Origin: Burkholderiales bacterium
GTDB taxonomy: Bacteria > Pseudomonadota > Gammaproteobacteria > Burkholderiales > SG8-41
NCBI GenBank assembly: GCA_046313915.1
Contig: JBKBXX010000002.1
Location: 14,449 to 78,448 of the forward strand
Reading direction: 5' to 3'
DNA length: 64,000 nt
Shown here: positions 731-58,461 of the stretch, piece by piece
Layout of the letters: every line of letters begins with the position of its first letter
How positions within the stretch are numbered: position 1 is the stretch's first letter
The notes under the pieces: generated by a model
Told to the model about the DNA's origin: nothing
Databases searched by the model: none
What the model saw: only the letters and a program-made list of their open reading frames with translations
Program-made: the position numbers and the translations under genes

Positions 731-3460
731 ATGAAAACACTGCTGCTGGTCGACGGTTCGTCCTACCTTTATCGCGCGTTTCACGCGCTGCCCGATTTGC
801 GCAACAAGAAAAACGAGCCGACCGGCGCGATCTATGGCGTGCTCAACATGCTGCGCCGGCTGCACCAGGATGCGCCCGCCGATTATAGCGCCTGCGTTTT
901 CGATGCCAAAGGCAAGACTTTCCGCGAAGAGGTCTATCCCGACTACAAGGCCCACCGGCCGCCCATGCCCGACGATCTCGCCGCGCAGATCGCGCCGCTG
1001 CACGAAACCATCGTCGCAATGGGCTGGCCGCTGCTGATCGTCGAGGGTGTGGAAGCCGACGATGTCATCGGCACGCTTGCCCGCCAGGCCGAGCGCGAGG
1101 GCATGCGGGTGGTGATCTCGACCGGCGACAAGGATCTGGCGCAGCTCGTCAGCCCCGCCATTACGCTGGTCAACACCATGTCCGGCGAGACCCTGAACGA
1201 AGCCGGCGTCGAGCAGAAATTCGGCGTCAAGGCCGAGCGCATCATCGATTATCTGACGCTGATCGGCGACAGCGTCGACAACGTGCCGGGAGTGGCCAAG
1301 GTCGGCCCCAAGACCGCGGTGAAGTGGCTGTCGCAGTACGGCACGCTCGACAACGTGATGCGGCATGCTGCCGAGATCGGCGGCGTGGTCGGCGAGAACC
1401 TGCGCCGCGCGCTCGACTGGTTGCCCAAGGCGCGCGAGCTGCTCACCATCAGATGCGACGTCGCGCTGCCGGTGAAAATCGAGGATCTCGCGCCGCGGCC
1501 GCCGGACACGGCGAAGCTCGCCGAGCTGTTCGAGCGCTTCGAATTCAGGTCGTGGCAGCGCGAGCTGGAAGGGGCGGCGGCCAACCGGGCGCCGCCGCCA
1601 GCGGCTGACGGCGCCAGCGCAGACGGCGCGGTGCATGCGCTGCAACCCGCGCTTGAACGGCATTACGAAACCGTGCTGACCGAGCAGCAGCTCGATGCCT
1701 GGGTGAGCCGGATCGCCGCGGCCGATCTGGTCGCGGTCGACACCGAGACCACCAGCCTCGATCCGCTGCGCGCGCAACTGGTCGGCATTTCGCTCGCCGT
1801 CGCCGCCGGCGACGCCGCCTACATTCCGGTAGGGCATCGCTACGCCGGCGCGCCGCCGCAGCTCGCGCTCGAACGGGTGCTCGCCCGGCTCGGTCCGTGG
1901 CTGGAAGATGCCGCGCGGCCCAAGCTCGGCCAGCACCTCAAGTACGACATGCACGTCTTGGCCAACCACGGCGTGCGTCTGGCCGGCGCGCAGCACGACA
2001 CGCTGCTGCAGTCGTACGTGCTGGAAAGCCACAAGCCACACGACATGGACAGCCTGGCCTATAGACATTTATCAATAAAAACAATAACTTATGATGAAGT
2101 CACGGGCCGGGGCGCGAACCGCATCGGCTTCGAGCAGGTGGCGCTCGAGCGCGCCGCCGAGTACGCGGCCGAGGACGCCGATATCACGCTGCGGCTGCAC
2201 CAGGCGCTGTACCCGCAGATCGAGGCGAACGCCGGACTCACCTATATTTACCGCGAACTCGAAATGCCGGTGATGCGCGTGCTGCAGATCATGGAACGCC
2301 ACGGCGTGCTGCTCGACACGGCGCTGCTCGCGGAACTGTCGCGCGAATTCGGCGAGAAAATGTTGGCGCTCGAAGCGCGGGCGCACGCGCAGGCCGGCCA
2401 GCCTTTCAACCTCAATTCGCCCAGGCAGATCCAGGACATCCTGTTCGGGAAACACGGGCTGAAGCCGGTCAGGAAAACGCCTTCGGGCGCGCCTTCCACC
2501 GACGAGGATACGCTTGAGCAGCTCGCGCTCGATCATCCGCTGCCGCGATTGATCCTCGATTACCGCAGTCTCGCCAAGCTCAAATCGACTTACACCGACA
2601 AGCTGCCCGAGATGATCCATCCCGCGACCGGGCGCGTGCACACCAATTATGCGCAGGCGGTAGCGGTGACCGGGCGGCTCGCGAGCAACGATCCCAATCT
2701 GCAGAACATCCCGATCCGCACCGCTGAAGGCCGGCGCATCCGCGAGGCGTTCATCGCGCCGCCGGGGTGCCATCTCGTGTCGGCGGACTATTCGCAGATC
2801 GAACTCAGGATCATGGCGCACGTGTCGCAGGACGCGGGCCTGCTCAGGGCATTCGCCGCCGGCGAGGATATCCACCGCGCCACCGCAGCGGAAATTTTCG
2901 GCGTGGCGCCGCAAGTCGTGGACGCCGAGCAGCGGCGTTACGCCAAAGTGATCAACTTCGGTCTGATCTACGGCATGTCGTCGTTCGGGCTCGCGCGCGA
3001 GCTCGGGCTTGAGCGCGCTGCCGCCCAGCAGTACATGGACCGCTATTTTGCGCGCTATCCGGGAGTTGCCGAGTACATGCGCGCGACACGCGAAAAAGCG
3101 CGCGAGCAGGGCTACGTCGAAACCGTGTTCGGGCGCCGGCTGTGGCTGCCCGAAATCCGCGGCGGCAACGGCATGCGACGCCAGGCCGCCGAGCGCGCGG
3201 CGATCAACGCGCCGATGCAAGGCACTGCGGCCGACCTCATCAAGATGGCGATGATCGCGGTGCAGAAATGGATAGAGCGCGACGGACTCAAGACCCGGCT
3301 CATCATGCAGGTGCACGACGAGCTGGTGCTCGAAGTGCCCGACGCCGAGCTCGCCGCCGTGAAAGAGACTTTGCCGCGTCTCATGACCGGCGTGGCGAAG
3401 CTCGCGGTGCCGCTGGTGGTCGATGTCGGAGTGGGGCCGAACTGGGATAAAGCGCATTGA
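731..3460 (+). CDS. polA: DNA polymerase I
   Basis: 909-aa ORF with a 5'-nuclease N-terminus (LLLVDGSSYLYRAFHALP), a 3'-5' exo domain (VAVDTETTSLD) and polymerase motifs (DYSQIELR, QVHDELV). Confidence 0.98.
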   Translation: MKTLLLVDGSSYLYRAFHALPDLRNKKNEPTGAIYGVLNMLRRLHQDAPADYSACVFDAKGKTFREEVYPDYKAHRPPMPDDLAAQIAPLHETIVAMGWPLLIVEGVEADDVIGTLARQAEREGMRVVISTGDKDLAQLVSPAITLVNTMSGETLNEAGVEQKFGVKAERIIDYLTLIGDSVDNVPGVAKVGPKTAVKWLSQYGTLDNVMRHAAEIGGVVGENLRRALDWLPKARELLTIRCDVALPVKIEDLAPRPPDTAKLAELFERFEFRSWQRELEGAAANRAPPPAADGASADGAVHALQPALERHYETVLTEQQLDAWVSRIAAADLVAVDTETTSLDPLRAQLVGISLAVAAGDAAYIPVGHRYAGAPPQLALERVLARLGPWLEDAARPKLGQHLKYDMHVLANHGVRLAGAQHDTLLQSYVLESHKPHDMDSLAYRHLSIKTITYDEVTGRGANRIGFEQVALERAAEYAAEDADITLRLHQALYPQIEANAGLTYIYRELEMPVMRVLQIMERHGVLLDTALLAELSREFGEKMLALEARAHAQAGQPFNLNSPRQIQDILFGKHGLKPVRKTPSGAPSTDEDTLEQLALDHPLPRLILDYRSLAKLKSTYTDKLPEMIHPATGRVHTNYAQAVAVTGRLASNDPNLQNIPIRTAEGRRIREAFIAPPGCHLVSADYSQIELRIMAHVSQDAGLLRAFAAGEDIHRATAAEIFGVAPQVVDAEQRRYAKVINFGLIYGMSSFGLARELGLERAAAQQYMDRYFARYPGVAEYMRATREKAREQGYVETVFGRRLWLPEIRGGNGMRRQAAERAAINAPMQGTAADLIKMAMIAVQKWIERDGLKTRLIMQVHDELVLEVPDAELAAVKETLPRLMTGVAKLAVPLVVDVGVGPNWDKAH
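2060..2098 (+). other. AT-rich synonymous codon island inside polA carrying CAAT-N5-CAAT (2073-2085)
   Basis: tat aga cat tta tca ata aaa aca ata act tat gat gaa gives 13 consecutive A/T-ending codons. The flanking codons are GC-ending. Confidence 0.7.
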
Positions 3461-8238: not shown

Positions 8239-9182
8239 TTGAGCGCCATCACGCCGGCTTCGTGCGCCTGCTGGTCGGCGTGATAGCTCGAACGCACCAG
8301 CGGCCCGCATGCGGCGTGGCTGAAACCCATTTTTTGCGCTTCGTGCGCGAACCGGTCGAAGAGCGCCGGCTCGACGTAACGCAGCACCGGCAGGTGGTGC
8401 GCCGAAGGCTGCAGATACTGGCCAATCGTCAGCATGTCGACGTCGTGCGCGCGCAGGTCGCGCATCACTTCGAGGATTTCCCCGTCGGTTTCGCCCAGCC
8501 CCACCATCAGTCCCGACTTGGCGGGGAGGTGCGGGCAGCGCGCTTTAAAATTCTTCAATAATTTCAATGAGTTACTGTAGTCTGCACCCGGGCGCGCCTG
8601 TTTGTAGAGCCGCGGCACGGTTTCCAGATTGTGGTTCATGACGTCGGGCGGACACTCGGCGAGGATGTCGAGCGCGAGATCGAGCCGGCCGCGGAAATCG
8701 GGCACCAGCGCTTCGATACGCGTTGCCGGCGAAGCCTCGCGCACGGCGCGGATGCAGTCCCTGAAATGGCGCGCGCCGCCATCGCGCAGGTCGTCGCGGT
8801 CGACGCTGGTGATCACCACATACTTGAGCTTGAGCGCGGCAATGGTGTCGGCGAGCCGGACGGGTTCGGCGGCGTCGGGCGGCAGCGGCTTGCCGTGCGC
8901 GACGTCGCAGAACGGGCAGCGCCGCGTGCACAGGTCTCCGAGGATCATGAAAGTCGCGGTGCCTTTGCCGAAACACTCGCCGATGTTGGGGCAGGTTGCT
9001 TCCTCGCACACCGTATGCAGGCGGTGCTCGCGCAGGATGTCCTTGATTTCCTGGAAGCGCCGGCCGTCGCCGAGCCGCACGCGGATCCACTCCGGCTTCC
9101 TCAGCGGTTCGGCCGGCACCACCTTGATCGGGATGCGCGCCGTCTTGGCCGCGCCTTTCTGCTTTTCACCTGTCGCGCTCAT
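8235..9182 (-). CDS. lipA: Lipoyl synthase
   Basis: Radical-SAM and auxiliary cluster cysteines ([22 protein letters not shown]), C-terminal SSYHADQQA. Confidence 0.97.
8544..8576 (+). other. AT-rich synonymous codon island inside lipA; the motif reads on the plus strand (antisense to lipA), CAAT-N5-CAAT at 8556-8568
   Basis: Minus-strand codons agt aac tca ttg aaa tta ttg aag aat ttt aaa encode [11 protein letters not shown]. The plus strand reads TTTAAAATTCTTCAATAATTTCAATGAGTTACT. Confidence 0.7.
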
Positions 9183-39292: not shown

Positions 39293-39296
39293 AGCC

Positions 39297-42200: not shown

Positions 42201-43187
42201 CAGTTTGCGACCGCCTGCGCGGCGGGCAATTTCACTTACGTCGGCCAGCGCTTCGCTTACACGGTCCAGCCGGTGATCACGGTGGAGGCGCGCAGTCTCG
42301 GCGGCAGCGCGACCGCGCTCTACCGCGGCAACTGGTGGCGCCTCACCAATGCGACTCTCAGCGGCAAGGCGTATACGGCGGCGAGCGGCACGGTGAATAC
42401 GGCCGATGTTCCCGCCACCGATCCGGTGATCCGCTATAACGGCGACGGCCTGCCCAATCCGCCGCCGCTCAACCCCGGCCAAGGCACGCTCACCTTCAGC
42501 TCGGGCACCGCTCTCGGTTCGGGCCTGTTTTTCACGCGTACTGTGCCCGTGGCGCCTTTCGACGCCGAGATCCGCCTCGCGATCAACGTTGCCGACGCCG
42601 ACGGCGTGGTCTATGAGTTTCCGCCCGGAACGCCCGCCAACCCGGTGGGCTTCGGCCAGGCGAGCGCCGGCAACGGCATCGCTTTTGCCAATGGCAAAAA
42701 CATGCGCTTCGGGCGCCTGCGGCTGGTCAATGCGAGCGGCTCCAACCTGCTGCCGCTCACGCTGCGCATGGAGGCGCAGCACTGGGTCGCGCCCGGCTAT
42801 TTCGTGACCAACGTCGACGACGGCTGCACGGCGGTTGCGGCGGCCAGCGTCGCGCTGGGCAATTTCCAGGGCCTGACGAACGGTGACACTACGCCGACGA
42901 TTACGTCCGAGCCTTTTGCGAACGGCGTCAAGCTCATCAGGCTTTCGGCGCCCGGCGGCACCAAGACCGGCAGCGTCGATGTCGTGGTCAACCTCAACGC
43001 GACTGCAGGTGCGCTTGCTGCCTGCCCGCCATTTGCCACCTCGTCCACTCCCACCGCAGCCAACCTCGCTTTCCTGCGCGGCAACTGGTGCGGCGGCTAC
43101 GACAACGATCCCAAGGCGAGGGCGCGTTTCGGCGTCTATCGCGGCAGCGAAGAGGTTATCGACATCAGGGAAAATTTCTTAAATTAA
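39297..43187 (+). CDS. Giant MshQ-like pilus-associated protein (about 1300 aa) with a repetitive Gly/Asn/Thr-rich N-terminal half
   Basis: Signal peptide MRLKFLATVILLGTWFATSSAALA. It is the last gene of the minor-pilin operon, as mshQ is in MSHA loci. Start is ATG 39297 or 39312. Confidence 0.72.
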   Translation: MGKQIMRLKFLATVILLGTWFATSSAALALTCASQTSGNWNVAATWSCGAVPGAADDVQIRNGNSVTIPAGYAAAANSVTFLATNGSARLIHDTGTSTLAVGAGGVTINAPTNNQINSWDVFDGSATVNGAVTLVGGSTNNRVARIRVSAGTLDINGNLTLDAAAAPRALLAVTGAGNVLLAGNFTLTSGQGTLTMAAGSTFTYRSAGTATVATGANIAYRNLVINKPGGTATAAAAPAPPRSLTVAGSLTVQAGVFDVASTNTAVSGNTSLSGELLLSSATGSKTFTGSVTINAVTGRWNNIGNAAVTMGGDLVNNNSTLTPAFVSGSGNYTFVNATYVWASVNGLTFSGNVFVNGRRTNTTTTTIAGNLAGSARLDNGANQTLNIGGNANGIATLDASANGNIVNYNGSAAQIAENTTYYHLRINNTVGPVTLAGAITVLGDLTNNGNFDPAAGSWRVTFGGSVTQNLLGTAATGFYDVTLDNPAGLVLAQDMNVAHNLTLQNGVLTTGSHILFISNPSPTGSNINANASKFIVGNLKKAIPAGSNISRNFEVGTVSGGLRYVPVSATFASVSIAGALTVATGVPDHPAIASSDIDENLSVNRYWTFTNGGTVFTSYSATLTFINPADLDSGTDPLVFIAQRYSPPHPAAGTWSDVAVSTATASITMSGVTGFGDFAVGTRRGGTPGIGRFNAYETSTPPGATTGVIRTKVAGQTFQLDIVAINLAGNAIQTNYTDTTRIEVLNASDNSGALDANACRPSWSVIQTLPNVDFISKDNGRKTVSITENNAWPVVRLRMSNLSGSRVGCSTDAFAIRPATLANLAASDNNNWETAGTARVLGEVTFGTVMHKAGRPFSVRATAQNAAGGTTTNYAGAPVVVLSVCGGAACTPSFGSLALNTAFVAGELVADTASYSEVGAFGLQLVDDAFAAIDNADGSTLGERRVASATVNVGRFVPDHFAVALNTPQFATACAAGNFTYVGQRFAYTVQPVITVEARSLGGSATALYRGNWWRLTNATLSGKAYTAASGTVNTADVPATDPVIRYNGDGLPNPPPLNPGQGTLTFSSGTALGSGLFFTRTVPVAPFDAEIRLAINVADADGVVYEFPPGTPANPVGFGQASAGNGIAFANGKNMRFGRLRLVNASGSNLLPLTLRMEAQHWVAPGYFVTNVDDGCTAVAAASVALGNFQGLTNGDTTPTITSEPFANGVKLIRLSAPGGTKTGSVDVVVNLNATAGALAACPPFATSSTPTAANLAFLRGNWCGGYDNDPKARARFGVYRGSEEVIDIRENFLN

Positions 43188-43302
43188 ACAATATGTTATG
43201 TTATATTTCCCAGGCTAAGACCAAAAAGAGCACTTAACCTATTGACAATATTGGGTTTTATGTTAATTTCCCTTACCATGGCCTCGTCAAGGCTGGGAAA
43301 AA
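43188..43302 (+). promoter_or_regulatory. AT-rich intergenic promoter region for mshI-N, with TTGACA and a direct repeat ATGTTA(T)ATTTCCC
   Basis: TTGACA at 43242-43247, then N16, then TAATTT. ATGTTATATTTCCC at 43198-43211 and ATGTTAATTTCCC at 43260-43272. Confidence 0.35.
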
Positions 43303-45969: not shown

Positions 45970-47678
45970 AGGAACGAACCATGCGCGGGATGAGACACGT
46001 GATGGCAGCGGTCGTGGTGCTCGTCATCGGCGGTTGCGCGAGTCCCGACAGGGCCCGCGACGTGACCTATGACAGCATCACCCGGGAGCTCGACAAGGCG
46101 GTGAAGAACCGCGTCAAGCCGGCGACGCCCGATGTCGTGACCGAGGCGCTGCTGCCGCCACTGGTGATCGAGATGCCCAAGGCCGAGGGCCGCTCGGCCG
46201 ATACCCGTTTCGACCTCAACGTCAACAATGCGCCGGCCAACCAGGTGTTCATGGCAGTGGTTTCGGGCACGCGCTACAGCATGATCGTGCATCCCGACGT
46301 CAAGGAGCCGATTTCGGTCAATCTCAAGGACGTGACCGTGTTCGAGGCGCTCGACACCATACGCGATCTTTACGGTTACGAGTACCGCGTGCAGGGCACG
46401 CGCATCACGGTGCAGCCCGTGAAACTGCAAACGCGCGTCTTCCAGGTCAACTATCTGCAGGCCACGCGGCGTGGCAGCACCGACGTGCGAGTCACTTCGG
46501 GCTCGATCACGGCGGCAGCTCCCGGCGTCTCCGGCATTCCCGGAACCACCGCCACCGCGGCGGCGCCCGGTGCGCCAACGGGCGGCACGGTTTCGCGCAC
46601 CAGCGAGAGCTCGCGCGTGACCACCGCTTCCGACAGCGACTTCTGGGGCGATGTCACCAAGTCGCTCAATGCCATCGTCGGCAGCAGCGACGGCCGCAGC
46701 GTGATCGTCAATCCGCAATCGGGCGTGATCGTGGTGCGCGCCATGCCCACCGAGCTGCGCAACGTCGAGTCTTTTCTCAAGGCGATGCAGCTCGTGGTCG
46801 AACGCCAGGTGGTGCTGGAAGCCAAGCTGATCCAGGTCACGTTGAGCGACAGCTCGCAGACTGGCATCAACTGGGCCGCGTTTCCCGACGGTGGCAGACG
46901 CGGCGCGCTGGGCGTGGTCACGAAAGAAGCGCAGATCGGCACCGGCGGGGAACTCGCGTCATCGGCGCTCGCGGCGACGCTCGGCGCCGGCGGCGCGCTG
47001 GCAGGCAAGGCGGCGGGCGGAGTTTTCGGACTGGCGCTGCAAACCGGCAATTTCGCCGCGCTGATGTCCTTCCTCGAAACCCAGGGCACGATCAACGTGC
47101 TGTCGAGCCCGCGGATCGCGACCATCAACAACCAGAAGGCCGTGCTCAAGGTCGGCACCGACGAGTTTTTCGTGACCAACATCAGCACCACTGCGGTGAC
47201 CAGCGGTGCCGGCACCACGACCACGCCGTCCATCACCGTGCAGCCGTTTTTCTCGGGCATCGCGCTCGACGTGACGCCGCAGATCGACGACAGCGACAAC
47301 ATCATCCTGCATATTCACCCTTCGGTGAGCAGCGTGTCGGAAAAACAGAAGGTCGTCAATCTCGGTGCTGCCGGCAGCTTCACGCTGCCGCTCGCTTCGA
47401 GCGAGATCAACGAAACCGACACCATCGTGCGCGTGCAGGACGGCAACATCGTCGCGATCGGCGGGCTCATGAAACAGCAGACCAGCAGCGACCGCAGTCA
47501 GCCGCCGGGCATGGGCGATGCATCGGGGTGGGGCGGCCTGTTCCGCCAACGCGCCAACAGCTCGCTCAAAAGCGAACTCGTGATCCTGCTCAAACCCACC
47601 ATCATCCGCAGCGATCGCGATTGGGAGCAGGGCTTGGCCGAGGCCCGCGACCGTATTCGCACCATGGAGCGCCAATAA
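45966..47678 (+). CDS. mshL: MSHA-type pilus secretin MshL (lipoprotein)
   Basis: Lipobox VLVIGGC. Secretin N domains, then the C-domain (INVLSSPRIATINNQKAVLKVGTDEFFV...TIVRVQDGNIVAIGGL...ELVILLKPTII). Confidence 0.92.
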   Translation: MKERTMRGMRHVMAAVVVLVIGGCASPDRARDVTYDSITRELDKAVKNRVKPATPDVVTEALLPPLVIEMPKAEGRSADTRFDLNVNNAPANQVFMAVVSGTRYSMIVHPDVKEPISVNLKDVTVFEALDTIRDLYGYEYRVQGTRITVQPVKLQTRVFQVNYLQATRRGSTDVRVTSGSITAAAPGVSGIPGTTATAAAPGAPTGGTVSRTSESSRVTTASDSDFWGDVTKSLNAIVGSSDGRSVIVNPQSGVIVVRAMPTELRNVESFLKAMQLVVERQVVLEAKLIQVTLSDSSQTGINWAAFPDGGRRGALGVVTKEAQIGTGGELASSALAATLGAGGALAGKAAGGVFGLALQTGNFAALMSFLETQGTINVLSSPRIATINNQKAVLKVGTDEFFVTNISTTAVTSGAGTTTTPSITVQPFFSGIALDVTPQIDDSDNIILHIHPSVSSVSEKQKVVNLGAAGSFTLPLASSEINETDTIVRVQDGNIVAIGGLMKQQTSSDRSQPPGMGDASGWGGLFRQRANSSLKSELVILLKPTIIRSDRDWEQGLAEARDRIRTMERQ

Positions 47679-47712
47679 CGCCTGGAGATGACGGTTTTCT
47701 CCCTCCTCTGCC

Positions 47713-48603
47713 ATGTATAAAGCCCACTTTGGACTGCACGAGTCGCCGTTCGGCATCACGCCCGACACGAGCTTCGCCTACGCCTGCACTTCGCACCAGG
47801 AGGCGCTCAACACGCTGCTGGTGGCGGTGCGCAACGGCGAAGGTTTCATCAAGATCACGGGCGAAGTTGGCACCGGCAAAACGTTGCTGTGCCGCCGTTT
47901 CCTGGCGATGCTCGATTACAACCATGTTTCGGCCTACATTCCCAATCCCTGCATGGAATTGCGCACCCTGCTGTTTGCGCTGGGCGACGAACTCGGCGTG
48001 GATCTGCCCAAAGACGGTGACCAGCACCACCTGCTCAAGGGCTTTACCGCGGCACTGCTCGAATTCGCGAACCAGGGCAAGGCGGTCGTGCTGTGTCTCG
48101 ACGAGGCACAGGCGATGCCGATCCAGACGCTCGAGGCGTTGCGGCTGCTGACCAATCTCGAAACCGAGAAGCGCAAGCTGCTCCAGGTGGTGCTCTTCGG
48201 CCAGCCCGAGCTCGATCACGCGCTCGAGCACGAGTCGGTGCGCCAGCTGCGGCAGCGCATCACTTTCCAGTACCGACTGACGGCGCTGCGCGGCAACGAA
48301 GTCGATCATTACATCGCCCACCGCCTGCGTGTTGCCGGCTACCGCGGCAGCCGGCTGTTCACCAAAGCCGCGGTGCGGCTCGTGCATCGCTACAGCCGCG
48401 GCGTGCCGCGGCTGATCAACATCGTTTCGCACAAGGCCATGCTGCTCGCCTTCGGCGAAGGCCTGCAGCAGGTTTTGCCGCACCACGTGCGCGCTGCTGC
48501 GGCGGATACGCCCGCTGCGGCGCGGCTCAGGTCGTGGTGGTGGCTGGGTTTCGTCGTGCTGCTGCTTTCCATCGGCGGCATCGGCTGGATGCTGCTCGCA
48601 TGA
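47713..48603 (+). CDS. mshM: MshM / ExeA-like AAA ATPase
   Basis: HFGLHESPFGITPDTSFAY...ITGEVGTGKTLLCR...LCLDEAQAMP...VVLFGQPEL. Confidence 0.88.
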   Translation: MYKAHFGLHESPFGITPDTSFAYACTSHQEALNTLLVAVRNGEGFIKITGEVGTGKTLLCRRFLAMLDYNHVSAYIPNPCMELRTLLFALGDELGVDLPKDGDQHHLLKGFTAALLEFANQGKAVVLCLDEAQAMPIQTLEALRLLTNLETEKRKLLQVVLFGQPELDHALEHESVRQLRQRITFQYRLTALRGNEVDHYIAHRLRVAGYRGSRLFTKAAVRLVHRYSRGVPRLINIVSHKAMLLAFGEGLQQVLPHHVRAAAADTPAAARLRSWWWLGFVVLLLSIGGIGWMLLA

Positions 48604-49892
48604 GTCTCATCAACCAGGTACTGCTCGATCTCGAAAAACGCCGTGCTTCCGGAGTGGACCGCAGCGTGGTGCCCGATCATGTGCGCGCGCTGCCCGAAGC
48701 GCGCCGCGGTCCGCGGCCGTGGCTGTTTGCGGTGGTAGCAGGCATACTGGTGATCGCAGCGGTCGCGGGGTGGGCGCTGTGGTCGGGATTCCGGTTTCCC
48801 GCCATCAAGCAAACACCTCCCGCGGTCGTGCCCCAGGCGGCGCCGCAACACAAGCCGGTCGAAACGGCGAGCCCGCCGGTCGTGACGGCGGCGCCACCGC
48901 TTGCGGCGCCGCCGGATGACGTTTTGCGCGAGGAAGCGGCGGCCGCGGCCGGTGCACCTGCGCCCGATTTGCAGCGCTACGGTTTGAGCCTCGAACTGTC
49001 GAATCTGCCCGCCGCGCCGGCGGCGAAACTGCAGCGCGGCGCCGACAGGCCACCGCAGGCCAAAGCGCCTCTGGCGAGTGCCGAGGTGATCGCCAAGGCG
49101 CCGCCTCCCGCAACCAAGGCGAAGACGAAAGCCGCGGACGGCACTGCCTTGGCGCCCGAAACTGCCGCGGTGTTGCCGAAACCCGCCGACACCCAAGCGC
49201 CGGCTGCGCCATCCGGCGTGGCCGAGCCGGCTCCCAAAAAAGCGGTGGCGGTTGCGAGGCCGGCAGCGCCGGCGCGTCCGGCCCCGCCGCCGGAAATCGA
49301 CAAGCAGGTGCGCCAGCCGACGCCGCAGCAGCTGGCGGAAAGCCTCTACGGCAAAGCAGCGGCGCTGCTGAACCAGGGCCGGCCGGGCGAAGCGCGCGAA
49401 GCTTTCGAAGCCGCGCTGCGTTACTCGCCCGAGCATACCGGCGCGCGCCAGGCCCTGTTCGGTTTGCTGATCGAGGCCAGAAACTACGCCGAGGCCGAGC
49501 GCGTGCTGCAGGAAGGCTTGCAGTTGAACCCCGGCCACAGCGCTTTCACGATAGCGCTGGCGCGCCTGCAGGTCGACCGCGGCCAGGCCCAGGCGGCGAT
49601 CGATACCTTGCGCAAAGGCATGGCTTATGCCCAGAACAATGCCGATTATCACGCTTTCATGGCGGCGCTGCTGCAACGCCAACAGCGGCACGAGGAAGCA
49701 GTCGAGCAGTTTCAGGTTGCGATCAGCCTGAAACCCCGTTCGGGAGTGTGGCTGATGGGGCTCGGCATCTCGCTGCAGGCGCTAAACCGCAATGCCGAAG
49801 CGCTCGAGGCGTTCCGGCGCGCCAAGAGCAGCGGCAATCTCAATGCCGATCTGCAGGCGTTCGTCGACCAGCGCCTGAGACAATTGCAATGA
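48600..49892 (+). CDS. mshN: MshN-like protein (TM anchor, Ala/Pro-rich linker, C-terminal TPRs)
   Basis: MSLINQVLLDLEKRR, a TM segment, a proline-rich region, then TPRs. ATGA overlap with mshM. The 48093 track ORF is an upstream extension overlapping mshM. Confidence 0.72.
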   Translation: MSLINQVLLDLEKRRASGVDRSVVPDHVRALPEARRGPRPWLFAVVAGILVIAAVAGWALWSGFRFPAIKQTPPAVVPQAAPQHKPVETASPPVVTAAPPLAAPPDDVLREEAAAAAGAPAPDLQRYGLSLELSNLPAAPAAKLQRGADRPPQAKAPLASAEVIAKAPPPATKAKTKAADGTALAPETAAVLPKPADTQAPAAPSGVAEPAPKKAVAVARPAAPARPAPPPEIDKQVRQPTPQQLAESLYGKAAALLNQGRPGEAREAFEAALRYSPEHTGARQALFGLLIEARNYAEAERVLQEGLQLNPGHSAFTIALARLQVDRGQAQAAIDTLRKGMAYAQNNADYHAFMAALLQRQQRHEEAVEQFQVAISLKPRSGVWLMGLGISLQALNRNAEALEAFRRAKSSGNLNADLQAFVDQRLRQLQ

Positions 49893-49963
49893 CAGCCGCA
49901 AACGGTGAGCGCTGAGTGGCGGGTTTGAAGCCGCGGGGATCACGGCTCAAAATGGATTTTCGC

Positions 49964-50671
49964 TTACCGCGGCAGCGTACGCGCCACGATCCAGCCGCTG
50001 ATGCGCGCCGCTCCCGCCAGACGCAGATTTTTCGCGAGCTCGTCGAGCGTGGCGCCGGTAGTCATCACGTCGTCTATCACCGCCACTTTCTTGCCGTCGA
50101 GATCGGCATCGCACACGAAAGCGCCACGCACGTTTTTCGCCCGTTCTTTCCACGGCAGCTCGGCCTGCGGCCGGGTTTCCACCACTTTGCGACAAGCAGC
50201 CGCGAGCAGCGGGATGCCGGTGAGCCGGCTCGTGTGGCGGGCGATTTCGAGCGACTGGTTGAAACCGCGCTCGCGTACCCGTTGCGGCGCAAGTGGCATG
50301 GGAACGATGCAGTCGGCGTGCTCCGTCAATGCATGCGCCAGCGCTTCGCCGAAGAAAGCGCCGAGGGCGAGATTGCCGTCGTACTTGAAAGCCTGAACCA
50401 GGGCGTCAACCGGAAAGGCGTAGGCAAACACTGCACTCACGCTGTCGTAGCGCGGCGGGTGCTTGAGACAGGCGCCGCACACGGCGCCGTGCGGGATCGG
50501 CAGCGCGCAACTCGCGCAGCGGCTGGCGGGAAGCCGCGGCAAATCGCCGGCGCACGCTGCGCACAGCAGCGCGCCGCCGCTCGCGCTGCTACACAGCATG
50601 CACGTTTGCGGCAGCAGTCGCCGCCCAATATGTAGGCAGCCGTTTAAAAAGGAGCGTGCCAAATTTGACAA
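49964..50671 (-). CDS. comF: ComF family protein (phosphoribosyltransferase domain, competence-associated)
   Basis: N-terminal Cys pairs (CMLC...CAAC...CASC...CGAC) and the PRT motif VAVIDDVMTTGATL. The start codon is uncertain (TTG 50671 or downstream). Confidence 0.85.
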   Translation of the reverse strand: MSNLARSFLNGCLHIGRRLLPQTCMLCSSASGGALLCAACAGDLPRLPASRCASCALPIPHGAVCGACLKHPPRYDSVSAVFAYAFPVDALVQAFKYDGNLALGAFFGEALAHALTEHADCIVPMPLAPQRVRERGFNQSLEIARHTSRLTGIPLLAAACRKVVETRPQAELPWKERAKNVRGAFVCDADLDGKKVAVIDDVMTTGATLDELAKNLRLAGAARISGWIVARTLPR

Positions 50672-50693
50672 GGAACAGGCTTTTCGTGATGAT
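50665..50693 (+). promoter_or_regulatory. Sigma-70-like promoter candidate for the bio operon
   Basis: TTGACA (50665-50670), N17, GATGAT (50688-50693). It is flanked by the direct repeat AGCCGTT(T)AAAAA at 50638 and 50697. Confidence 0.3.
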
Positions 50694-50710
50694 ACAAGCC
50701 GTTAAAAAAC

Positions 50711-51742
50711 ATGATTTTCTCCGAAAAAACCGCGATGGATGGCATGACCGTTAACGAATGTCTTTCCGTTTCCGCTGACGACCCCGCTGCGTGCGCGCGC
50801 TGGACGGTGGAGCAGGTCGAGGCGCTGTTCGATTGGCCGTTCAACGATCTCGTCTACCGCGCGCAGTCGGTGCACCGCCAGCATTTCGACCCCAACGCGG
50901 TGCAGCTGTCCACGCTGCTGTCGGTCAAAACCGGAGGCTGCCCCGAGGACTGCGGCTATTGTCCGCAGGCCGCGCGCCATCACACCGGCGTCGAAAACCA
51001 GGACATGCTCGCGCTCGATGCCGTGATCGAGGCGGCACGCAAAGCGAAACAAAGCGGCGCGACCCGTTTCTGCATGGGCGCGGCGTGGCGCGGACCCCGG
51101 CAGCGCGATCTGGAGCGGGTGCTCGAGATGATCCGCGCGGTGCGCGCGCTCGGCATGGAAACCTGCGCCACGCTGGGCATGCTGAAGGACGGTCAGGCCG
51201 AACAGCTCAGGGCCGCCGGACTCGACTATTACAACCACAACATCGACACCGCGCCCGAATTCTATGGCGAAATCGTTTCTACCCGCAGCCAGAGCGACCG
51301 CCTCGCCACGCTGGGGCGCGTGCGCGCCGCCGGCCTGCGGGTGTGTTGCGGCGGCATCGTCGGCATGGGCGAACCGCGCCGCAGCCGTGCCGCGCTGATC
51401 GCGCAGCTCGCCAACATGGAGCCGTATCCGGAATCGGTGCCGATCAACAACCTGATGCAGGTCGCGGGCACGCCGCTCTACGGCACCGCGCGGCTCGATC
51501 CGCTGGAATTCGTGCGCACCATCGCCTGCGCGCGCATCACCATGCCGAAAGCGATGGTGCGCCTGTCGGCGGGCCGCGAGGAAATGTCCGATGGCATACA
51601 GGCGCTGTGCTTTCTGGCCGGCGCCAACTCGATTTTCTATGGCGAGAAACTGCTTACCACCGGTAATCCCGAGGTCGAAAAAGACCGGGCGCTGTTCGCG
51701 AGACTCGGCATGTATCCGATGGAGACGGGGAATGAGGCGTAA
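50711..51742 (+). CDS. bioB: Biotin synthase
   Basis: [16 protein letters not shown] radical-SAM motif, [15 protein letters not shown]. The start may be a downstream ATG (50735 or 50744). Confidence 0.96.
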
Positions 51743-51810
51743 GGCGGCAGCCTCGGTGTGCCGCGCGCTCGCGGTGCCTGGTTTTCCGCCCCGCGCGTGA
51801 CGCTGCCCGG

Positions 51811-52965
51811 ATGTCCTTTTCCGCCCTCGTGGCAGAACTCGCCGAACTCGAAGCACGCGGCCTCGGGCGCCGCCGGCGCGTGCTGCAAGGTCCGCAGACG
51901 GCGCAGGTGACGGTCGACGGCCGGCGATATCTCGCATTCTGCAGCAATGACTATCTGGGACTCGCGGCGCATCCGCGGCTGGTGCGCGCCGCCCAGGAAG
52001 GCGCTGCGCGCTACGGTATCGGCGCCGGCGCTTCGCACCTGATTCTCGGCCACGGCGCAGCGCATCACGCGCTCGAGGCAGCGCTCGCCGCCTTCGTCGG
52101 TCTGCCGCGTGCGCTGCTGTTTTCCACCGGCTATATGGCCAATCTCGGCATCGTGACCGCACTCACCGGGCGCGGTGACGCCGTGTTCGCCGACAAGCTC
52201 AATCACGCTTCGCTCAACGACGCGGCGCTGCTGTCGCGTGCCCACTTCAAGCGTTATCCGCATCTCGATCTGGATGCGCTGGGAAAACTGCTCTCGACCA
52301 CGCGCGCGCGGCGCAAGCTGGTGGTGACCGACGCCGTATTCAGCATGGACGGCGATATCGCCCCGTTGCCCGAACTGCTGGCGCTGTGCGAGCGCCACGA
52401 TGCCTGGCTCGTGCTCGATGATGCGCACGGTTTCGGCGTACTGGGCACGGGCGGGCGCGGCGTCCTGTCGCATTTCGACATCACCGCGCCGCCGCGCGTG
52501 ATCTATATGGCGACGCTCGGCAAGGCGGCTGGCGTATCCGGCGCTTTCGTCGCGGGCGGCGAGGCCGTGACGGAAATGCTGATCCAGCGCGCCCGCAGCT
52601 ATGTCTATACCACGGCCATGCCGCCGCTGCTCGCGCATACGTTGCTCGAAAGTCTCGCCCTGATCGAGCACGAACAGTGGCGACGCGACCGTCTGCACAA
52701 TTTAATTATTCAATTAAAACAATCAGTTACTGGTGTGCGCTGGAAATTGCTGCCTTCGGAGACCGCGATCCAGCCGCTTGTCGTCGGCGGCAACGCCGAA
52801 GCCGTGGCGGTGGCGGAGCGGCTGGCACAGCGCGGGCTGCTGGTGCCGGCGATCCGGCCGCCGACGGTGCCGCAAGGCAGCGCACGCTTGCGCATTTCGC
52901 TGTCGGCCGCGCACAGCGCAGACGATGTCGCGCGGCTGGCTGCGGCGCTGCGTGAATCGCAATGA
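51811..52965 (+). CDS. bioF: 8-amino-7-oxononanoate synthase
   Basis: [10 protein letters not shown]...DKLNHASL...[12 protein letters not shown]...[13 protein letters not shown]...[12 protein letters not shown]. Confidence 0.95.
52699..52734 (+). other. AT-rich synonymous codon island inside bioF carrying CAAT-N5-CAAT (52711-52723)
   Basis: aat tta att att caa tta aaa caa tca gtt act ggt gives 12 consecutive A/T-ending codons. Confidence 0.7.
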
Positions 52966-53729
52966 GCCTGCATTGCGAAGTCGCGGGCAGCGGCCCCGAT
53001 CTGGTGCTGTTGCACGGCTGGGGCATGAATGCCGGCATCTGGAGCGGCGTGGTGCGCGAACTAGCGCCGCATTTTCGCGTGCACGCGGTGGATCTGCCGG
53101 GATACGGCGCGAGCGCGGCGTGCGAGCCCTATACGCTTGAACACCTGGCGCAACGGCTGGCGCAGCGGCTGCCGTCCCCTTGCTTGGTGTGCGGCTGGTC
53201 GCTGGGCGGGCAGCTCGCGCTGACGTGGGCGGGCGCGCGGCCGCAGCAGGTGAGGCGGCTGGCCTTGATCGCAACCACGCCGTGTTTTGTCCGGCGCGAC
53301 GGCTGGACGCACGCGGTGGAGGCAGGCGTGCTGCGGGCTTTTGCGCAGGCCCTGACAACGGACTACGCCGGCACCCTCCGGCGCTTTGTGGCCTTGCAGG
53401 CGCAAGGCGACGACCGCGCGAGGCAAGTGATCGCGCAATTGCGGCAGACCCTGTTTGCGCGCGGCGAACCCGCTTCCCGCGTACTGACACAGGGGCTGGA
53501 CATATTGCTCGGCACCGATCTGCGCGCGCAGCTTGCGGCGATCGCGCAACCGGCGCTGGTGCTGCACGGCGAGTGCGACGCCCTGGTGCCGTCCGCCGCC
53601 GGCGCCCATCTGGGCCGCATGCTGCCGCGGGCGCGATTCGTCGGGATGCCGGGCGCCGCCCATGCGCCGTTCGCCTCCGATCCGATGGCCACGAGCGCGC
53701 TGCTGAAAAGGTTTTTCGATGAACGATGA
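52962..53729 (+). CDS. bioH: Pimeloyl-[acyl-carrier protein] methyl ester esterase
   Basis: LVLLHGWGMNAGIW...VCGWSLGG (nucleophile elbow)...GAAHAPF. It lies between bioF and bioC. Confidence 0.87.
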   Translation: MSLHCEVAGSGPDLVLLHGWGMNAGIWSGVVRELAPHFRVHAVDLPGYGASAACEPYTLEHLAQRLAQRLPSPCLVCGWSLGGQLALTWAGARPQQVRRLALIATTPCFVRRDGWTHAVEAGVLRAFAQALTTDYAGTLRRFVALQAQGDDRARQVIAQLRQTLFARGEPASRVLTQGLDILLGTDLRAQLAAIAQPALVLHGECDALVPSAAGAHLGRMLPRARFVGMPGAAHAPFASDPMATSALLKRFFDER

Positions 53730-54588
53730 GCTCCTGATCGACAAGCGGCTCGCGCGGCGCTCGTTCGAGCACGCTGCGGCATCGTACGATGCGGCGGCGG
53801 TATTGCAGAACGAAGTGTGCCGGCGCGCGCTCGAACGCCTCGATTACATCAGGCACGAGCCGCGCAGCATACTCGATGCCGGCAGCGGCACCGGCAACGC
53901 GCTCGCGGCGCTGGCGCGGCGTTACCCGGGGGCGCGGCTGATCGCGCTCGACATCGCGCTCGCCATGTTGCAACGTGCACGCGGCCGCATGCCGTGGTGG
54001 AAGAAGCTGCTGTTGCGCCGTGCGCCGGCTGCGGTATGCGCGGACATCGAGCGCCTGCCGCTCGCCGATGCCGCGGTCGACATGGTGTGGTCGAATCTCG
54101 CGCTGCAATGGGTAAACGACGTGGAACGGACGTTCGCGGAAATGCAACGCGTGCTCGCGCCCGGCGGGCTGCTGATGTTCAGCACTTTCGGTCCGGATAC
54201 GCTCAAGGAATTGCGTGCTGCCTATCGGGGCGCCGATCGCCATACCCACGTCAACCGCTTCATCGACATGCACGACATCGGCGACATGCTGGTGCGCGCC
54301 GGCTTCGCCGACCCGGTGATGGACATGGAGATTTTCACCCTCACCTATGCCGAGGTGCGCGACCTGATGCGCGACCTGAAGGCGATAGGCGCGCACAACG
54401 TGACGCGCGGCCGGCCGGCAGGGCTTTCCGGCAAGGCGCAGCTCATGGCGGTGACCCGCAGCTACGAAACGTTGCGGCGCGACGGCAGATTGCCGGCGAC
54501 GTTCGAAGTGGTGTATGGCCACGCGTGGAAGCCGCGCCCGCGCCCGACCGGCCGGCCTGTAATCGAGATCAAGGAAGTCCGGCTTTGA
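53719..54588 (+). CDS. bioC: Malonyl-[acyl-carrier protein] O-methyltransferase
   Basis: RSFEHAAASYDAAAVLQ...ILDAGSGTGNA...DMVWSNLALQW...GGLLMFSTFG. Confidence 0.9.
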   Translation: MNDELLIDKRLARRSFEHAAASYDAAAVLQNEVCRRALERLDYIRHEPRSILDAGSGTGNALAALARRYPGARLIALDIALAMLQRARGRMPWWKKLLLRRAPAAVCADIERLPLADAAVDMVWSNLALQWVNDVERTFAEMQRVLAPGGLLMFSTFGPDTLKELRAAYRGADRHTHVNRFIDMHDIGDMLVRAGFADPVMDMEIFTLTYAEVRDLMRDLKAIGAHNVTRGRPAGLSGKAQLMAVTRSYETLRRDGRLPATFEVVYGHAWKPRPRPTGRPVIEIKEVRL

Positions 54589-55298
54589 CCTTTCATCCTT
54601 CGCCCTTTGCTCCTCACGGTTTCTTCGTCACCGGCACCGATACCGGCGTGGGCAAGACGCTGATGGCGTGCGCGCTGCTGCACGCATTTGCGGCGCGCGG
54701 CGCGCGCGTCGTCGGCATGAAGCCGGTCGCCGCCGGCGCGCGGCGCACGGCGCGCGGCCTGCGCAACGACGATGTCGACCGGCTGGTCGCGGCGGGCAAT
54801 GTCACGGCGCCGCTCGCCTGGATCAATCCGTATTGTTTCGAGCCGCCGGTCGCGCCGCATATCGCGGCGTGCGCCGCCGGTGTTGCAATCGAGTTGCCCC
54901 GCATCGCGAACGCCTGCCGCGAGCTCGCCGCGATCGCCGACACCGTGATCGTCGAAGGCGCGGGAGGTTTTTGCGTTCCGCTCAATGCGCGCGAAACCAC
55001 CGCGGATCTCGCGCAAAGCCTCGGTTTGCCGCTGCTGCTGGTGGTGGGCATGCGGCTGGGTTGCCTCAACCATGCGCTGCTCACCGCGCAGGCGGCGCGC
55101 GCCCGCGGTCTCGTGCTCGCGGGGTGGGTCGCCAACCAGATCGAGCCGGGAATGCCGTATCTGGACGAAAACATCGCCGCGCTCGAAGAACGCCTCGTCG
55201 CGCCGTGCCTGGCGCACGTCGGCTTTGCGCCAGCGGCCGATGCGCGGCAGGTGGCACGCCTGCTCGATCTCGGGGCGTTGCAGGGCGGCGGGCGGTGA
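54585..55298 (+). CDS. bioD: Dethiobiotin synthase
   Basis: GFFVTGTDTGVGKTLMACALL...KPVAAG...VIVEGAGGF. The TTG start overlaps the bioC stop (TTGA). The upstream part of the 53817 track ORF overlaps bioC in another frame. Confidence 0.88.
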   Translation: MTFHPSPFAPHGFFVTGTDTGVGKTLMACALLHAFAARGARVVGMKPVAAGARRTARGLRNDDVDRLVAAGNVTAPLAWINPYCFEPPVAPHIAACAAGVAIELPRIANACRELAAIADTVIVEGAGGFCVPLNARETTADLAQSLGLPLLLVVGMRLGCLNHALLTAQAARARGLVLAGWVANQIEPGMPYLDENIAALEERLVAPCLAHVGFAPAADARQVARLLDLGALQGGGR

Positions 55299-55523
55299 GG
55301 CGCGGGCGCGCTGCCCGCTTTTCCGGTTGCGATGCTGCCAGGTTTGGTTGCCACGGCCCGGGGGGTGTGTTAAATTCCGCCCGTTTCGGCAGATACCAGC
55401 GCGCGGCCCACGACGCGTCCCCGATGCGGACGTCGCTGCCCAGGGAAGCAGCAAGGTTTGCGCTCATCGTCCGACGCCACGGCGCCGGCGATCGCTGGGT
55501 CTTGGGGGGCTTGGCGGTGGCGG

Positions 55524-55614
55524 GCGGTTTTCCGGTTTTGTCTCCTCGTCGATCGTGCTAGGTGTCGCGGTTTTCCGGCCAACGGCTGGAAAACCATAAC
55601 CGGCTGTTGGCCGG
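55524..55614 (+). other. Mutually exclusive hairpins / 12-nt direct repeat in the 405-bp leader upstream of coxB
   Basis: GCGGTTTTCCGG at 55524 and 55567. GGTTTTCC (55569-76) pairs with GGAAAACC (55588-95). Alternative stem: CCGGCCAACGGC (55575-86) with GCTGTTGGCCGG (55603-14). Confidence 0.4.
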
Positions 55615-55703
55615 GCGGTTGTGGCGGCAAAGAGCCGGCGCGCGAGCTGCGACTCGGGTTTGAAGGCGGCCGCAGATGATTTGGCGGATTCATTGGGGGA
55701 AGA

Positions 55704-56852
55704 ATGAGTAACAAGCTGGCAAAACACCTCACGGGATGGCTGGGGTTCCTGTTGTTGTTCCCGGTCACGGCGTTCGGCGATTATCAGTTCAATCTGCAGA
55801 CGCCCCAAACGGCTCTCGCCCAGAAGATCTACGATCTGCACACCATCGTTCTGGTGGTGTGCATCGTGATCTTCGTCGGGGTTTTCGGGGCGATGTTCTA
55901 CTCGATCATCAAGCACCGCAAGTCAGTGGGGCACAAAGCCGCCCAGTTCCACGAGAATACGGTGGTGGAAGTGGTGTGGACGCTGGTGCCTTTCGTGATC
56001 CTGATCGCGATCGTCGTGCCTGCGACCAAAACGCTGGTGGAAATGCGCGACACCTCCGAGCCCGACCTGACCGTCAAGGCGACCGGCTATCAGTGGAAAT
56101 GGAGCTACGACTATCTGAAAGGTGAAGGCGAAGGAATCAGCTTCTACAGTGCCCTTGCCACGCCGCGCGATCAGATCGACGGCAGCAATGTCGAGGCGCG
56201 CAGCAAAAACGCCAACTACCTGCTCGAAGTCGACAATCCGCTCGTGGTTCCCGTCGGCAAGAAAGTGCGTATTCTCACCACGGCGCAGGACGTGATTCAC
56301 GCCTGGTGGGTACCGGCGCTGGCGGTGAAGCAGGATGCGATACCCGGCTTCATTCGCGATGCCTGGTTCAAGGCCGAGAAGCCCGGCACCTATCGCGGCC
56401 AATGCGCGGAATTGTGCGGCAAGGACCACGGCTTCATGCCGATCGTGGTCGAGGCGCTGGAGCCGGAGAAGTACGCGGCGTGGGCAAAAGCGCAGAAGGA
56501 GAAGATGGCGAAAGCCGCCGCTGCCGACGACCCCGCCAAGAGCTGGTCGCTCGACGATCTCAAGGCGCGCGGCGCCCGGGTCTACGCCGCCAACTGCGTG
56601 GCCTGCCATCAGGCGAGCGGCATGGGCGTGCCGGGTGCCTTCCCCGCCCTGTCGGGATCCAAGGTGGTCAACGGGCCGAAGAACGACCAGATCGCGCTGG
56701 TGTTGAACGGCAAGCCGGGCACCGCGATGGCCGCGTTCAAACACCTGTCGGACGTCGAGCTGGCGGCGGTCGTCACCTATACCCGCAACAGCTGGAACAA
56801 CAAGACCGGCGAGGCGATTGCCCCGAGCGAAGTCAAGGCGTTACGCAAATAA
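55704..56852 (+). CDS. coxB: Cytochrome c oxidase subunit II with C-terminal cytochrome c domain
   Basis: CuA site HAWWVPALAVKQDAIPGFIRDAWFKAEKPGTYRGQCAELCGKDHGFM and heme c motif CVACHQ. Confidence 0.95.
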   Translation: MSNKLAKHLTGWLGFLLLFPVTAFGDYQFNLQTPQTALAQKIYDLHTIVLVVCIVIFVGVFGAMFYSIIKHRKSVGHKAAQFHENTVVEVVWTLVPFVILIAIVVPATKTLVEMRDTSEPDLTVKATGYQWKWSYDYLKGEGEGISFYSALATPRDQIDGSNVEARSKNANYLLEVDNPLVVPVGKKVRILTTAQDVIHAWWVPALAVKQDAIPGFIRDAWFKAEKPGTYRGQCAELCGKDHGFMPIVVEALEPEKYAAWAKAQKEKMAKAAAADDPAKSWSLDDLKARGARVYAANCVACHQASGMGVPGAFPALSGSKVVNGPKNDQIALVLNGKPGTAMAAFKHLSDVELAAVVTYTRNSWNNKTGEAIAPSEVKALRK

Positions 56853-56874
56853 CACCAGGATTCAGGAGAGCACC

Positions 56875-58461
56875 ATGGATGCAGCACACGCACACGAACA
56901 CGCTCATGGCGGCCACGCCTCTCATCCCTCCGGGATCATGCGCTGGGTCACATCGACCAACCACAAGGACATCGGCACGATGTATCTGTGGTTCAGCTTC
57001 ACCATGTTCCTCGTCGGCGGGGTGATGGCGCTCATCATCCGCACCGAGTTGTTCCAGCCCGGCCTGCAGATCGTCAATCCCGACTTTTTCAACTCGATGA
57101 CGACCTATCACGGCCTCATCATGGTGTTCGGCGCGATCATGCCGGCTTTCGTCGGCTTCGCCAACTGGCTGATTCCGATGCAGATCGGGGCGCCCGACAT
57201 GGCGTTTCCGCGGATGAACAATCTGTCGTTCTGGCTGCTGCCGCCAGCCGCGCTGCTGCTGATCGCCGCCCAGTTCATGCCCGGCGGCGGCGCCGGCGTC
57301 GGCTGGACCATGTACGCGCCGCTCACGGTGCAGGCCGGCCCGGCGATGGACCTCACCATTTTTGCCGTGCACATTCTCGGCATGTCCTCGATCATGGGGT
57401 CGATCAACATCGTGACCACCGTCCTCAACATGCGCGCGCCGGGCATGACGCTGATGAAAATGCCGCTGTTCTGCTGGACCTGGCTGATCACCGCCTATCT
57501 GCTGATCGCGGTGATGCCGGTGCTGGCGGGAGCGGTGACCATGATTCTCACCGACCGCCATTTCGGAACCCACTTTTTCAACGCCGCGGGCGGTGGCGAT
57601 CCGGTGCTGTACCAGCACATTTTCTGGTTCTTCGGCCACCCCGAGGTCTATATCATCGCGATTCCCGCTTTCGGCGTGATTTCGCAGGTCATCCCCGCGT
57701 TCTCGCGCAAGCCGTTGTTCGGCTATACCTCAATGGTGTATGCGACGGCGTCGATCGCGATCCTGTCGTTCCTGGTGTGGGCGCACCACATGTACACCGC
57801 GGGCATGCCGGTCGAGGCACAGCTCTACTTCATGTATGCGACCACGCTGATCGCGGTGCCGACCGGAGTCAAGGTGTTCAACTGGGTGGCGACGATGTGG
57901 AAAGGTTCGCTCACCTTCGAGACGCCGATGCTGTTCGCGCTCGGCTTCCTGTTCCTGTTTACTGTGGGCGGTTTTACTGGCCTCGTGCTGTCGATCACGC
58001 CGGTCGACGTGCAGCTTCACGACACTTATTACGTCGTGGCCCATTTCCATTACGTGATGGTGGCCGGCGCGTTGTTCTCGGCATTCGCCGGCATCTATTT
58101 CTGGCTGCCGAAGTGGACCGGTCGCATGTACGACGAGACGCTCGGCAAGTGGCATTTCTGGCTGTCGCTCATATTCTTCAACGTGACTTTCTTCGTACAG
58201 CACTTCCTGGGCCTGGCGGGCATGCCGCGCCGCATTCCGGACTACGCGCTGCAGTTTGCCGAGTTCAACGCCATTTCCTCGATCGGCGCGTGGGGTTTCG
58301 GACTCGCGCAGCTGCTGTTTCTCTATATCGTGGTAAAGACGATCACCAGCGGAGAAAAGGCGCAGGACAAGCAATGGGAAGGCGCCGACAGCCTCGAGTG
58401 GACGGCGCTGCCTTCGCCCGCGCCTTACCACAGCTTCGAGACACCGCCAGTGATCAAATGA
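56875..58461 (+). CDS. ctaD: Cytochrome c oxidase subunit I
   Basis: WVTSTNHKDIGTMYLWF...HHMYT...YVVAHFHYVM. AGGAGAG RBS before ATG 56875. Confidence 0.97.
   Translation: MDAAHAHEHAHGGHASHPSGIMRWVTSTNHKDIGTMYLWFSFTMFLVGGVMALIIRTELFQPGLQIVNPDFFNSMTTYHGLIMVFGAIMPAFVGFANWLIPMQIGAPDMAFPRMNNLSFWLLPPAALLLIAAQFMPGGGAGVGWTMYAPLTVQAGPAMDLTIFAVHILGMSSIMGSINIVTTVLNMRAPGMTLMKMPLFCWTWLITAYLLIAVMPVLAGAVTMILTDRHFGTHFFNAAGGGDPVLYQHIFWFFGHPEVYIIAIPAFGVISQVIPAFSRKPLFGYTSMVYATASIAILSFLVWAHHMYTAGMPVEAQLYFMYATTLIAVPTGVKVFNWVATMWKGSLTFETPMLFALGFLFLFTVGGFTGLVLSITPVDVQLHDTYYVVAHFHYVMVAGALFSAFAGIYFWLPKWTGRMYDETLGKWHFWLSLIFFNVTFFVQHFLGLAGMPRRIPDYALQFAEFNAISSIGAWGFGLAQLLFLYIVVKTITSGEKAQDKQWEGADSLEWTALPSPAPYHSFETPPVIK

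Follow-up and report, generated by a model that had tools for sequence, protein, structure and literature searches.

The closest described counterparts of the elements reported here are the binding sites of IHF, such as lambda attP H' and those of the E. coli chromosome. In the canonical 34-bp IHF site, a WATCAA hexamer near the centre is followed four bp 3' by a TTR triplet, two dinucleotide steps (mostly AA) that lie nine bp apart serve for proline intercalation and, in some sites only, an A tract occupies the 5' half (PMC1874591). In a ChIP-seq study in E. coli, out of about 3000 occurrences of the IHF motif less than 10% were upstream of operons, and the role of the remainder was left open (PMC3333857). 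The AT islands analysed here resemble these sites in their length of about 34-35 bp and in having all elements in the same register (PMC1874591). Unlike the E. coli sites, they lie in rare-codon runs of housekeeping genes in a 65% GC genome, they are held at the same codons over 68-94% protein identity, their third core position is mostly A, their copies are less degenerate, and they are predicted from sequence. E. coli is already known to have IHF sites inside genes; what is new here is a comparative case of selective maintenance in housekeeping genes.

The islands also bear comparison with position-conserved rare-codon clusters, in which rare synonymous codons are likewise conserved in position (Chaney et al. 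2017, PMC5438181). What the islands conserve, in contrast to these clusters, is a strand-independent DNA motif, found also antisense to genes and in non-coding DNA, and not codon rarity. In the Pasteurellaceae and Neisseriaceae, USS and DUS in coding regions constrain codon and amino-acid choice and recur about once per kb; the islands are similarly an intragenic DNA motif that constrains codons, but they number about four in 64 kb and are built like a bending site. In a GC-rich genome, AT-rich DNA usually serves as a promoter or to nucleate an H-NS/MvaT-like silencer. The targets of H-NS, MvaT and Lsr2 are, like the islands, AT-rich DNA that is conspicuous in a GC-rich genome; these targets are long, poorly defined and part of acquired DNA, however, whereas the islands measure 35 bp, are sharply bounded, carry a motif and occur in core genes.

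The stretch of DNA that we analysed, referred to throughout as the window, spans 64 kb and has a GC content of 65%. Within bioF, positions 52699-52734 read AATTTAATTATTCAATTAAAACAATCAGTTACTGGT, with ctg cac on the 5' side and gtg cgc tgg on the 3' side, and form the codons AAT TTA ATT ATT CAA TTA AAA CAA TCA GTT ACT GGT in the frame of the gene. An earlier note, made from the sequence alone, had described this segment as 12 consecutive A/T-ending codons between these flanks, and both the sequence and the reading frame bear this description out. The run is the longest of its kind in the gene, where A/T-ending codons make up 23% overall, and its chance expectation, computed from the gene's own codon figures, is about 1e-5. 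It encodes residues 297-308, which fall in a variable helix, and shows no indel with respect to homologues. The sequence is natural, and the window BioF is itself found in the protein collection, where it is placed on an 80-kb contig (P0001), its relatives there being uncultured Burkholderiales or Betaproteobacteria. A palindrome to which the note had drawn attention, CAGTTACTG, does exist as a 4+1+4 inverted repeat (CAGT-T-ACTG), but no relative keeps it and it is incidental. The coordinates of the island's elements and of the other copies in the window are collected in the table.

Table. Coordinates in the window of bioF, of the predicted IHF-type sites and of the elements of the bioF site.
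Feature	Position	Strand	Remarks
Predicted IHF-type site in polA (gene 731-3460, +)	2060..2094	+	core AAACAATAACTTA at 2079-2091
Predicted IHF-type site in lipA (gene 8235-9182, minus strand)	8543..8577	+	core TTTCAATGAGTTA at 8562-8574
Predicted IHF-type site, intergenic, upstream of pilM-like gene	43167..43201	+	core AAACAATATGTTA at 43186-43198
bioF (8-amino-7-oxononanoate synthase), host gene of the island	51811..52965	+	island encodes residues 297-308
Predicted 35-bp IHF-type site in bioF	52698..52732	+	sequence and frame; lambda H' frame register; conserved in L081, L082/L083, L084, L085, L089
bioF site, 5' A/T tract	52699-52710	+	
bioF site, AA steps nine bp apart	52712-52713 and 52721-52722	+	
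bioF site, core AAACAA	52717-52722	+	
bioF site, TTA	52727-52729	+	

Scanning the window in 30-nt segments at a threshold of at least 24 A/T revealed islands within genes in polA, lipA and bioF only, all others at that level being intergenic. The polA island consists of 13 A/T-ending codons in series, and both it and the lipA island encode widely conserved peptides (YRHLSIKTITYDE in the case of polA) with no change in length. The CAAT-N5-CAAT pattern that the earlier note had seen on the plus strand of all three gene islands is indeed present in each of them, and lipA and bioF have in common the longer plus-strand string TTCAAT-N5-CAAT-N-AGTTACTG (two matches against zero expected). The motif shared by the polA, lipA and bioF islands goes well beyond compositional expectation: the best ungapped similarity is 19/24 both for bioF/lipA and for bioF/polA, each on the same strand and each equalled by one of 2000 composition-preserving shuffles, and 17/24 for polA/lipA, a value reached in 41 of 2000 shuffles.

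To place the islands against the anatomy of an IHF site, we used as a frame the 35-bp lambda H' sequence, which is that of the crystallised duplex and carries AAAAAA at positions 5-10. A total of 22 instances from the window and its relatives, representing only about nine independent site families, were set on this frame with the core as the sole anchor, yielding the consensus nnnnnAAAnTnnTCAATnAAAACAAnnAnTTAnnn. The CAA of the WATCAA element is present in all 22 instances, and TTA or TTG stands four bp 3' of the hexamer in 22/22, while the four bases in between vary freely. The four window sites (AAACAA, TTTCAA) each deviate from the full hexamer by one base, and the copies from relatives L085, L091, L089 and L166 match it exactly (AATCAA); T occupies the third core position in only 5/22, most cores reading AAACAA or TTTCAA and not WATCAA. 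AA is found at frame positions 24-25 in every instance and at positions 15-16 in 19/22 (7/9 independent families). The CAAT-N5-CAAT pattern of the earlier note equals this pair of AA steps at a distance of nine bp, and in this form it holds; the T of each CAAT, which was part of the pattern as first described, is not conserved. Frame positions 5-12 are at least 90% A/T, with a consensus AAA at 6-8 in the same place as the H' A-tract, and the corresponding 5' tract of the bioF copy, AATTTAATTATT, is not a pure A-tract. Outside frame positions 5-33 both information content and AT-richness are at background, and the predicted bioF footprint (52698-52732) matches the island (52699-52734) in position and the IHF site in its extent of about 34 bp.

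The textbook IHF consensus WATCAANNNNTTR, which was set before testing, was compared with 64 AT islands from high-GC loci. Allowing at most one mismatch, it matched 30 of them, where shuffles gave 10.7 ± 3.0, and five matched exactly, where shuffles gave 0.6; taken singly, no island matches the canonical consensus significantly better than its composition predicts (p about 0.12-0.20). The presence of IHF in this organism is assumed because the protein is near-universal in the Proteobacteria, genes for ihfA/ihfB (DNABII) not being found within the 64-kb window, where the sole GRNP.T match falls in a non-coding frame. The island is very likely a selected protein-binding or bending site, and the one in bioF is predicted to be, and probably is, a binding site of IHF or of a very similar sequence-specific DNA-bending protein. 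IHF itself as the binder is suggested by analogy with its known sites, at somewhat better than even chances.

The conservation of the islands was assessed on 120 BioF homologues and 164 fetched loci. The earlier note had counted a lack of conservation in relatives against a shared element; the motif is in fact conserved at all three genes. At bioF, the AT island occupies identical codons in six high-GC lineages at 68-94% protein identity (L081, 94%; L082/L083, 79%; L084, 78%; L085, 75%; L089, 68%), the relatives that bear it being metagenomic and having a GC content of 60-68%. The conserved columns read ATTATT..A TTA AA[A/T] CAA N4 TT[A/G], with CAA and TT fixed and the N4 spacer free to vary, and the core of the L085 island is perfect (AATCAAATAGTTA). 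L166/L167 retain the polA island at 74-75% protein identity, and L165 (89%) and L168 (87%) retain that of lipA. The bioF island is absent in other relatives of 67-75% identity (L088, L001, L007, L091, L008, L006 and more), and GTDB reference genomes, with BioF identity of at most 74%, have no island and ordinary GC at the same spot in bioF. Likewise, L166/L167 lack the lipA island and specify the same SLKLLK-FK peptide by means of CTG, AAG and TTC codons. On a BioF tree inferred with the island columns masked, the sequences that have the island group in a single clade apart from two outliers, which implies that the site is old and was lost repeatedly or that it was gained more than once.

Within the islands, 55-100% of codons have A/T at the third position, against 4-12% elsewhere in the same genes (both genomes). 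Nucleotide identity over whole islands is not above the gene average, the maintained parts being AT-richness and the core only. AT-richness and a short core are thus held against strong GC pressure, while the remainder drifts.

Judged by these comparisons of sequence, the signal is at the DNA level and not at the codon level, because the motif lies on the sense strand of polA and bioF but on the antisense strand of lipA, and because relatives without the site use CTG, not TTG. In lipA, both CAA triplets of the motif come from TTG Leu codons and the intervening Leu is TTA, and G/C is the last base of four of the 11 island codons, at just those places where C or G is required by the motif on the opposite strand. 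All four window copies (2079, 8562, 43186, 52717) are on the plus strand, which is the G-rich strand, and every copy in the syntenic polA-lipA region of L165, L166 and L168 has the equivalent orientation; among the independent site families, 7/9 have it on the G-rich strand, a bias that is not significant (p ~0.18).

Copies of the motif also occur beyond the three gene islands. The intergenic copy upstream of the pilM-like gene has orthologous copies in L006, L008 and L091 and a weaker one in L082, and in relatives the motif is found in non-coding DNA upstream of bioB (L006, L008, L091), upstream of uvrD and between hsp20 and ECF-sigma genes (L166). A further intragenic copy, with core AATCAAATACTTA, is located at L089 3128-3162 within the bioD gene of that relative (L089 2857-3549, plus strand). 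Here GVAIELPRIANACRE of the window BioD is replaced by IQKNIIKIKYLRSY, the L089 protein reading AIQKNIIKIKYLRSY at the motif against the window's GVAIELPRIANACRE, and the length is unchanged. The earlier proposal of a common DNA-level element in polA, lipA and bioF therefore stands insofar as the motif is conserved and independent of gene strand, but the intergenic promoter-proximal copies and the one in bioD show that it is not specific to housekeeping genes.

The surroundings of these copies present several additional features. The pilM-like intergenic copy is bracketed (43164-43212) by an inverted repeat, GGGAAAAT...ATATTTCCC, which is kept as G[GT]GAAAAT...T[CT]TCCC in L008 (1574-1621) and L082 (986-1037) and which may be a pair of regulator sites joined by the bend; a sigma-70-like TTGACA-N16-TAATTT (43243-43270) follows this copy. 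In the divergent comF-like/bioB intergenic region, the window has a weak IHF-like core, ATACAAGCCGTTA (50692-50704), orthologous to ATTCAAGCCATTA in L082/L084, and at this position L006, L008 and L091 have a strong motif copy on the opposite strand. An alternation between a site upstream of bioB, as in L006, L008 and L091, and a site in bioF was considered and discarded, the window, L082 and L084 also having an IHF-like core upstream of bioB. The gene order of the region (~39240-56900), which comprises an MSHA/type-IV-pilus-like cluster, the comF-like gene, bioB-bioF-bioH-bioC-bioD and a cytochrome c oxidase cluster, is kept in L082 and L084, as judged from the Pfam calls of these relatives.

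Rfam had no match within the window, and a scan for intrinsic terminators on both strands found none at the bioF, polA and lipA islands. RNA folding compared with shuffles indicated no structure at bioF (z +0.8 and +0.2) or lipA (z -0.05). The RNA of 2045-2125, which comprises the polA island and its flanks, folds better than 200/200 shuffles (z -3.4), owing to pairing between its GC-rich flanks (CCUGGCC/GGCCGGG) over the top of the island.

Several other readings of the islands have to be weighed against a bending site of the IHF type. A different clade-specific DNA-binding protein, acting as a global regulator or chromosome organiser and recognising a longer motif of approximately TCAATWAAAACAANNANTTAYGAT, would make the likeness to IHF sites a partial one, and we consider it unlikely. 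Such a protein would account for the strong resemblance of non-orthologous copies over about 25 nt (22-23/25 between the polA island and the intergenic copies of L006/L008), which exceeds that of the degenerate E. coli IHF sites, for the A in the core where IHF prefers T, and for the PWM finding the extended motif in the closest relatives only; the plus-strand location of all four window copies and the G-rich-strand location in seven of nine families point the same way. Against it, each conserved block is an IHF element in register and the conserved length is that of the IHF footprint, the orientation bias falls short of significance, and the motif has neither the dyad symmetry nor the regular direct repeat typical of dedicated regulators. 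We know of no regulator consensus that provides a better match; those of Tus/Ter, dif, Fur, Zur, ArgR, FNR, CtrA and LexA, the BirA/BioR operators, Lrp, the H-NS motif and the IS200/IS605 target sites were all considered and discarded as matching poorly. It is distinctly doubtful that the islands, rather than being ordinary IHF sites, are clade-specific, high-information, orientation-biased architectural sites kept on the leading strand in core genes, that they serve as fixed anchors for chromosome folding, replication or segregation, recognised either by IHF or by a protein of their own, and that selection for them has sufficed to rewrite the bioF and bioD proteins.

A conserved rare-codon cluster that pauses the ribosome for co-translational folding, with the DNA motif as a by-product (cf. 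PMC5438181), would fit the 12 and 13 A/T-ending codons of bioF and polA, which include TTA, ATA and AGA in a genome with a GC3 of ~0.8, as well as the conservation of their position among homologues. The antisense lipA copy, with the same plus-strand motif and mixed third positions, and the near-identical copies in non-coding DNA rule out a pause as the sole explanation; particular bases (CAA, TT) are moreover fixed beyond codon rarity, and the amino acids of bioF and bioD have been changed to N/I/K for the motif, which a pause does not need, so that this reading is highly improbable. The AT-richness of the islands, the distance of about 230 bp from the bioF island to the start of bioH and of about 250 bp from the lipA island to the next gene of its operon, and the resemblance of TCAATAA to the H-NS high-affinity motif TCGATAAATT might instead suggest a promoter, internal or antisense, or a place where an H-NS/MvaT-like silencer nucleates. 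We assign a very slight probability to either role: neither strand of the polA, lipA or bioF island has a sigma-70 -35/-10 pair separated by 16-18 bp, the polA site lies in the middle of its gene, 1.4 kb short of the end, and the conserved C and G positions and sharply bounded 35 bp are unlike the spreading of a silencer. Downstream of the three islands there is no convincing sigma-54 promoter either, the only sigma-54-like match having three mismatches overall. This match (TGGCAC-N5-GGGCT, 52823-52838) has a perfect -24 element, lies 90 bp past the bioF site and 139 bp ahead of the bioH start, and is probably a chance occurrence in GC-rich coding DNA. The abrupt composition boundaries of the islands and their patchy distribution among relatives could finally be taken for the decaying remnant of a small mobile element or of a horizontally acquired low-GC patch, a reading that we regard as almost certainly wrong. 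A mobile-element footprint, including that of a miniature element of the RPE type inserted in frame, is excluded because the islands align residue for residue with no length change: across the 164 loci, lengths differ only by unrelated indels, island-free orthologues are equal in length and the homologous residue pattern is retained. The A/T third positions are also still present at 68-79% protein identity, a distance over which neutral sites would have gone back to GC. The BioF, PolA and LipA of E. coli presumably show no length difference at the islands either.

In a bending site of the IHF type, an IHF heterodimer, or a protein that functions in much the same way, would bind the 34-35 bp, by analogy with the IHF/H' complex. 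Two beta-ribbon arms would put prolines into the AA steps nine bp apart, which correspond to both CAA(T) repeats, and the DNA would be kinked there; one flank of the protein would read the WATCAA-like core and the TTR, the other would clamp the 5' A/T tract at its narrow minor groove, and the DNA would be bent sharply into a U-turn. At a genomic GC content of 65%, an intragenic site of this kind would need either synonymous A/T-rich codons for a conserved peptide, as proposed for polA and lipA, or a placement where the protein tolerates N/I/K-type residues with A/T-rich codons, as proposed for bioF and bioD. Since a site could be written into a 65% GC gene only with A/T-rich codons, the run of 12 rare codons would follow, and slower translation would be a likely side effect of that run. 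The role of the bend could conceivably be in nucleoid architecture or in helping a nearby promoter.

In a 65% GC genome, sites of this kind show as sharp AT islands, and their persistence can be read from third codon positions. The islands analysed here provide comparative evidence that some intragenic bending-protein sites, as predicted, are under purifying selection strong enough to burden housekeeping enzymes with a dozen rare codons and even with altered residues. The islands constitute compact, well-defined targets for asking what intragenic bending sites do, and codon-optimising such genes, or reading their rare-codon runs as a translational signal, would miss an element that operates at the level of the DNA.
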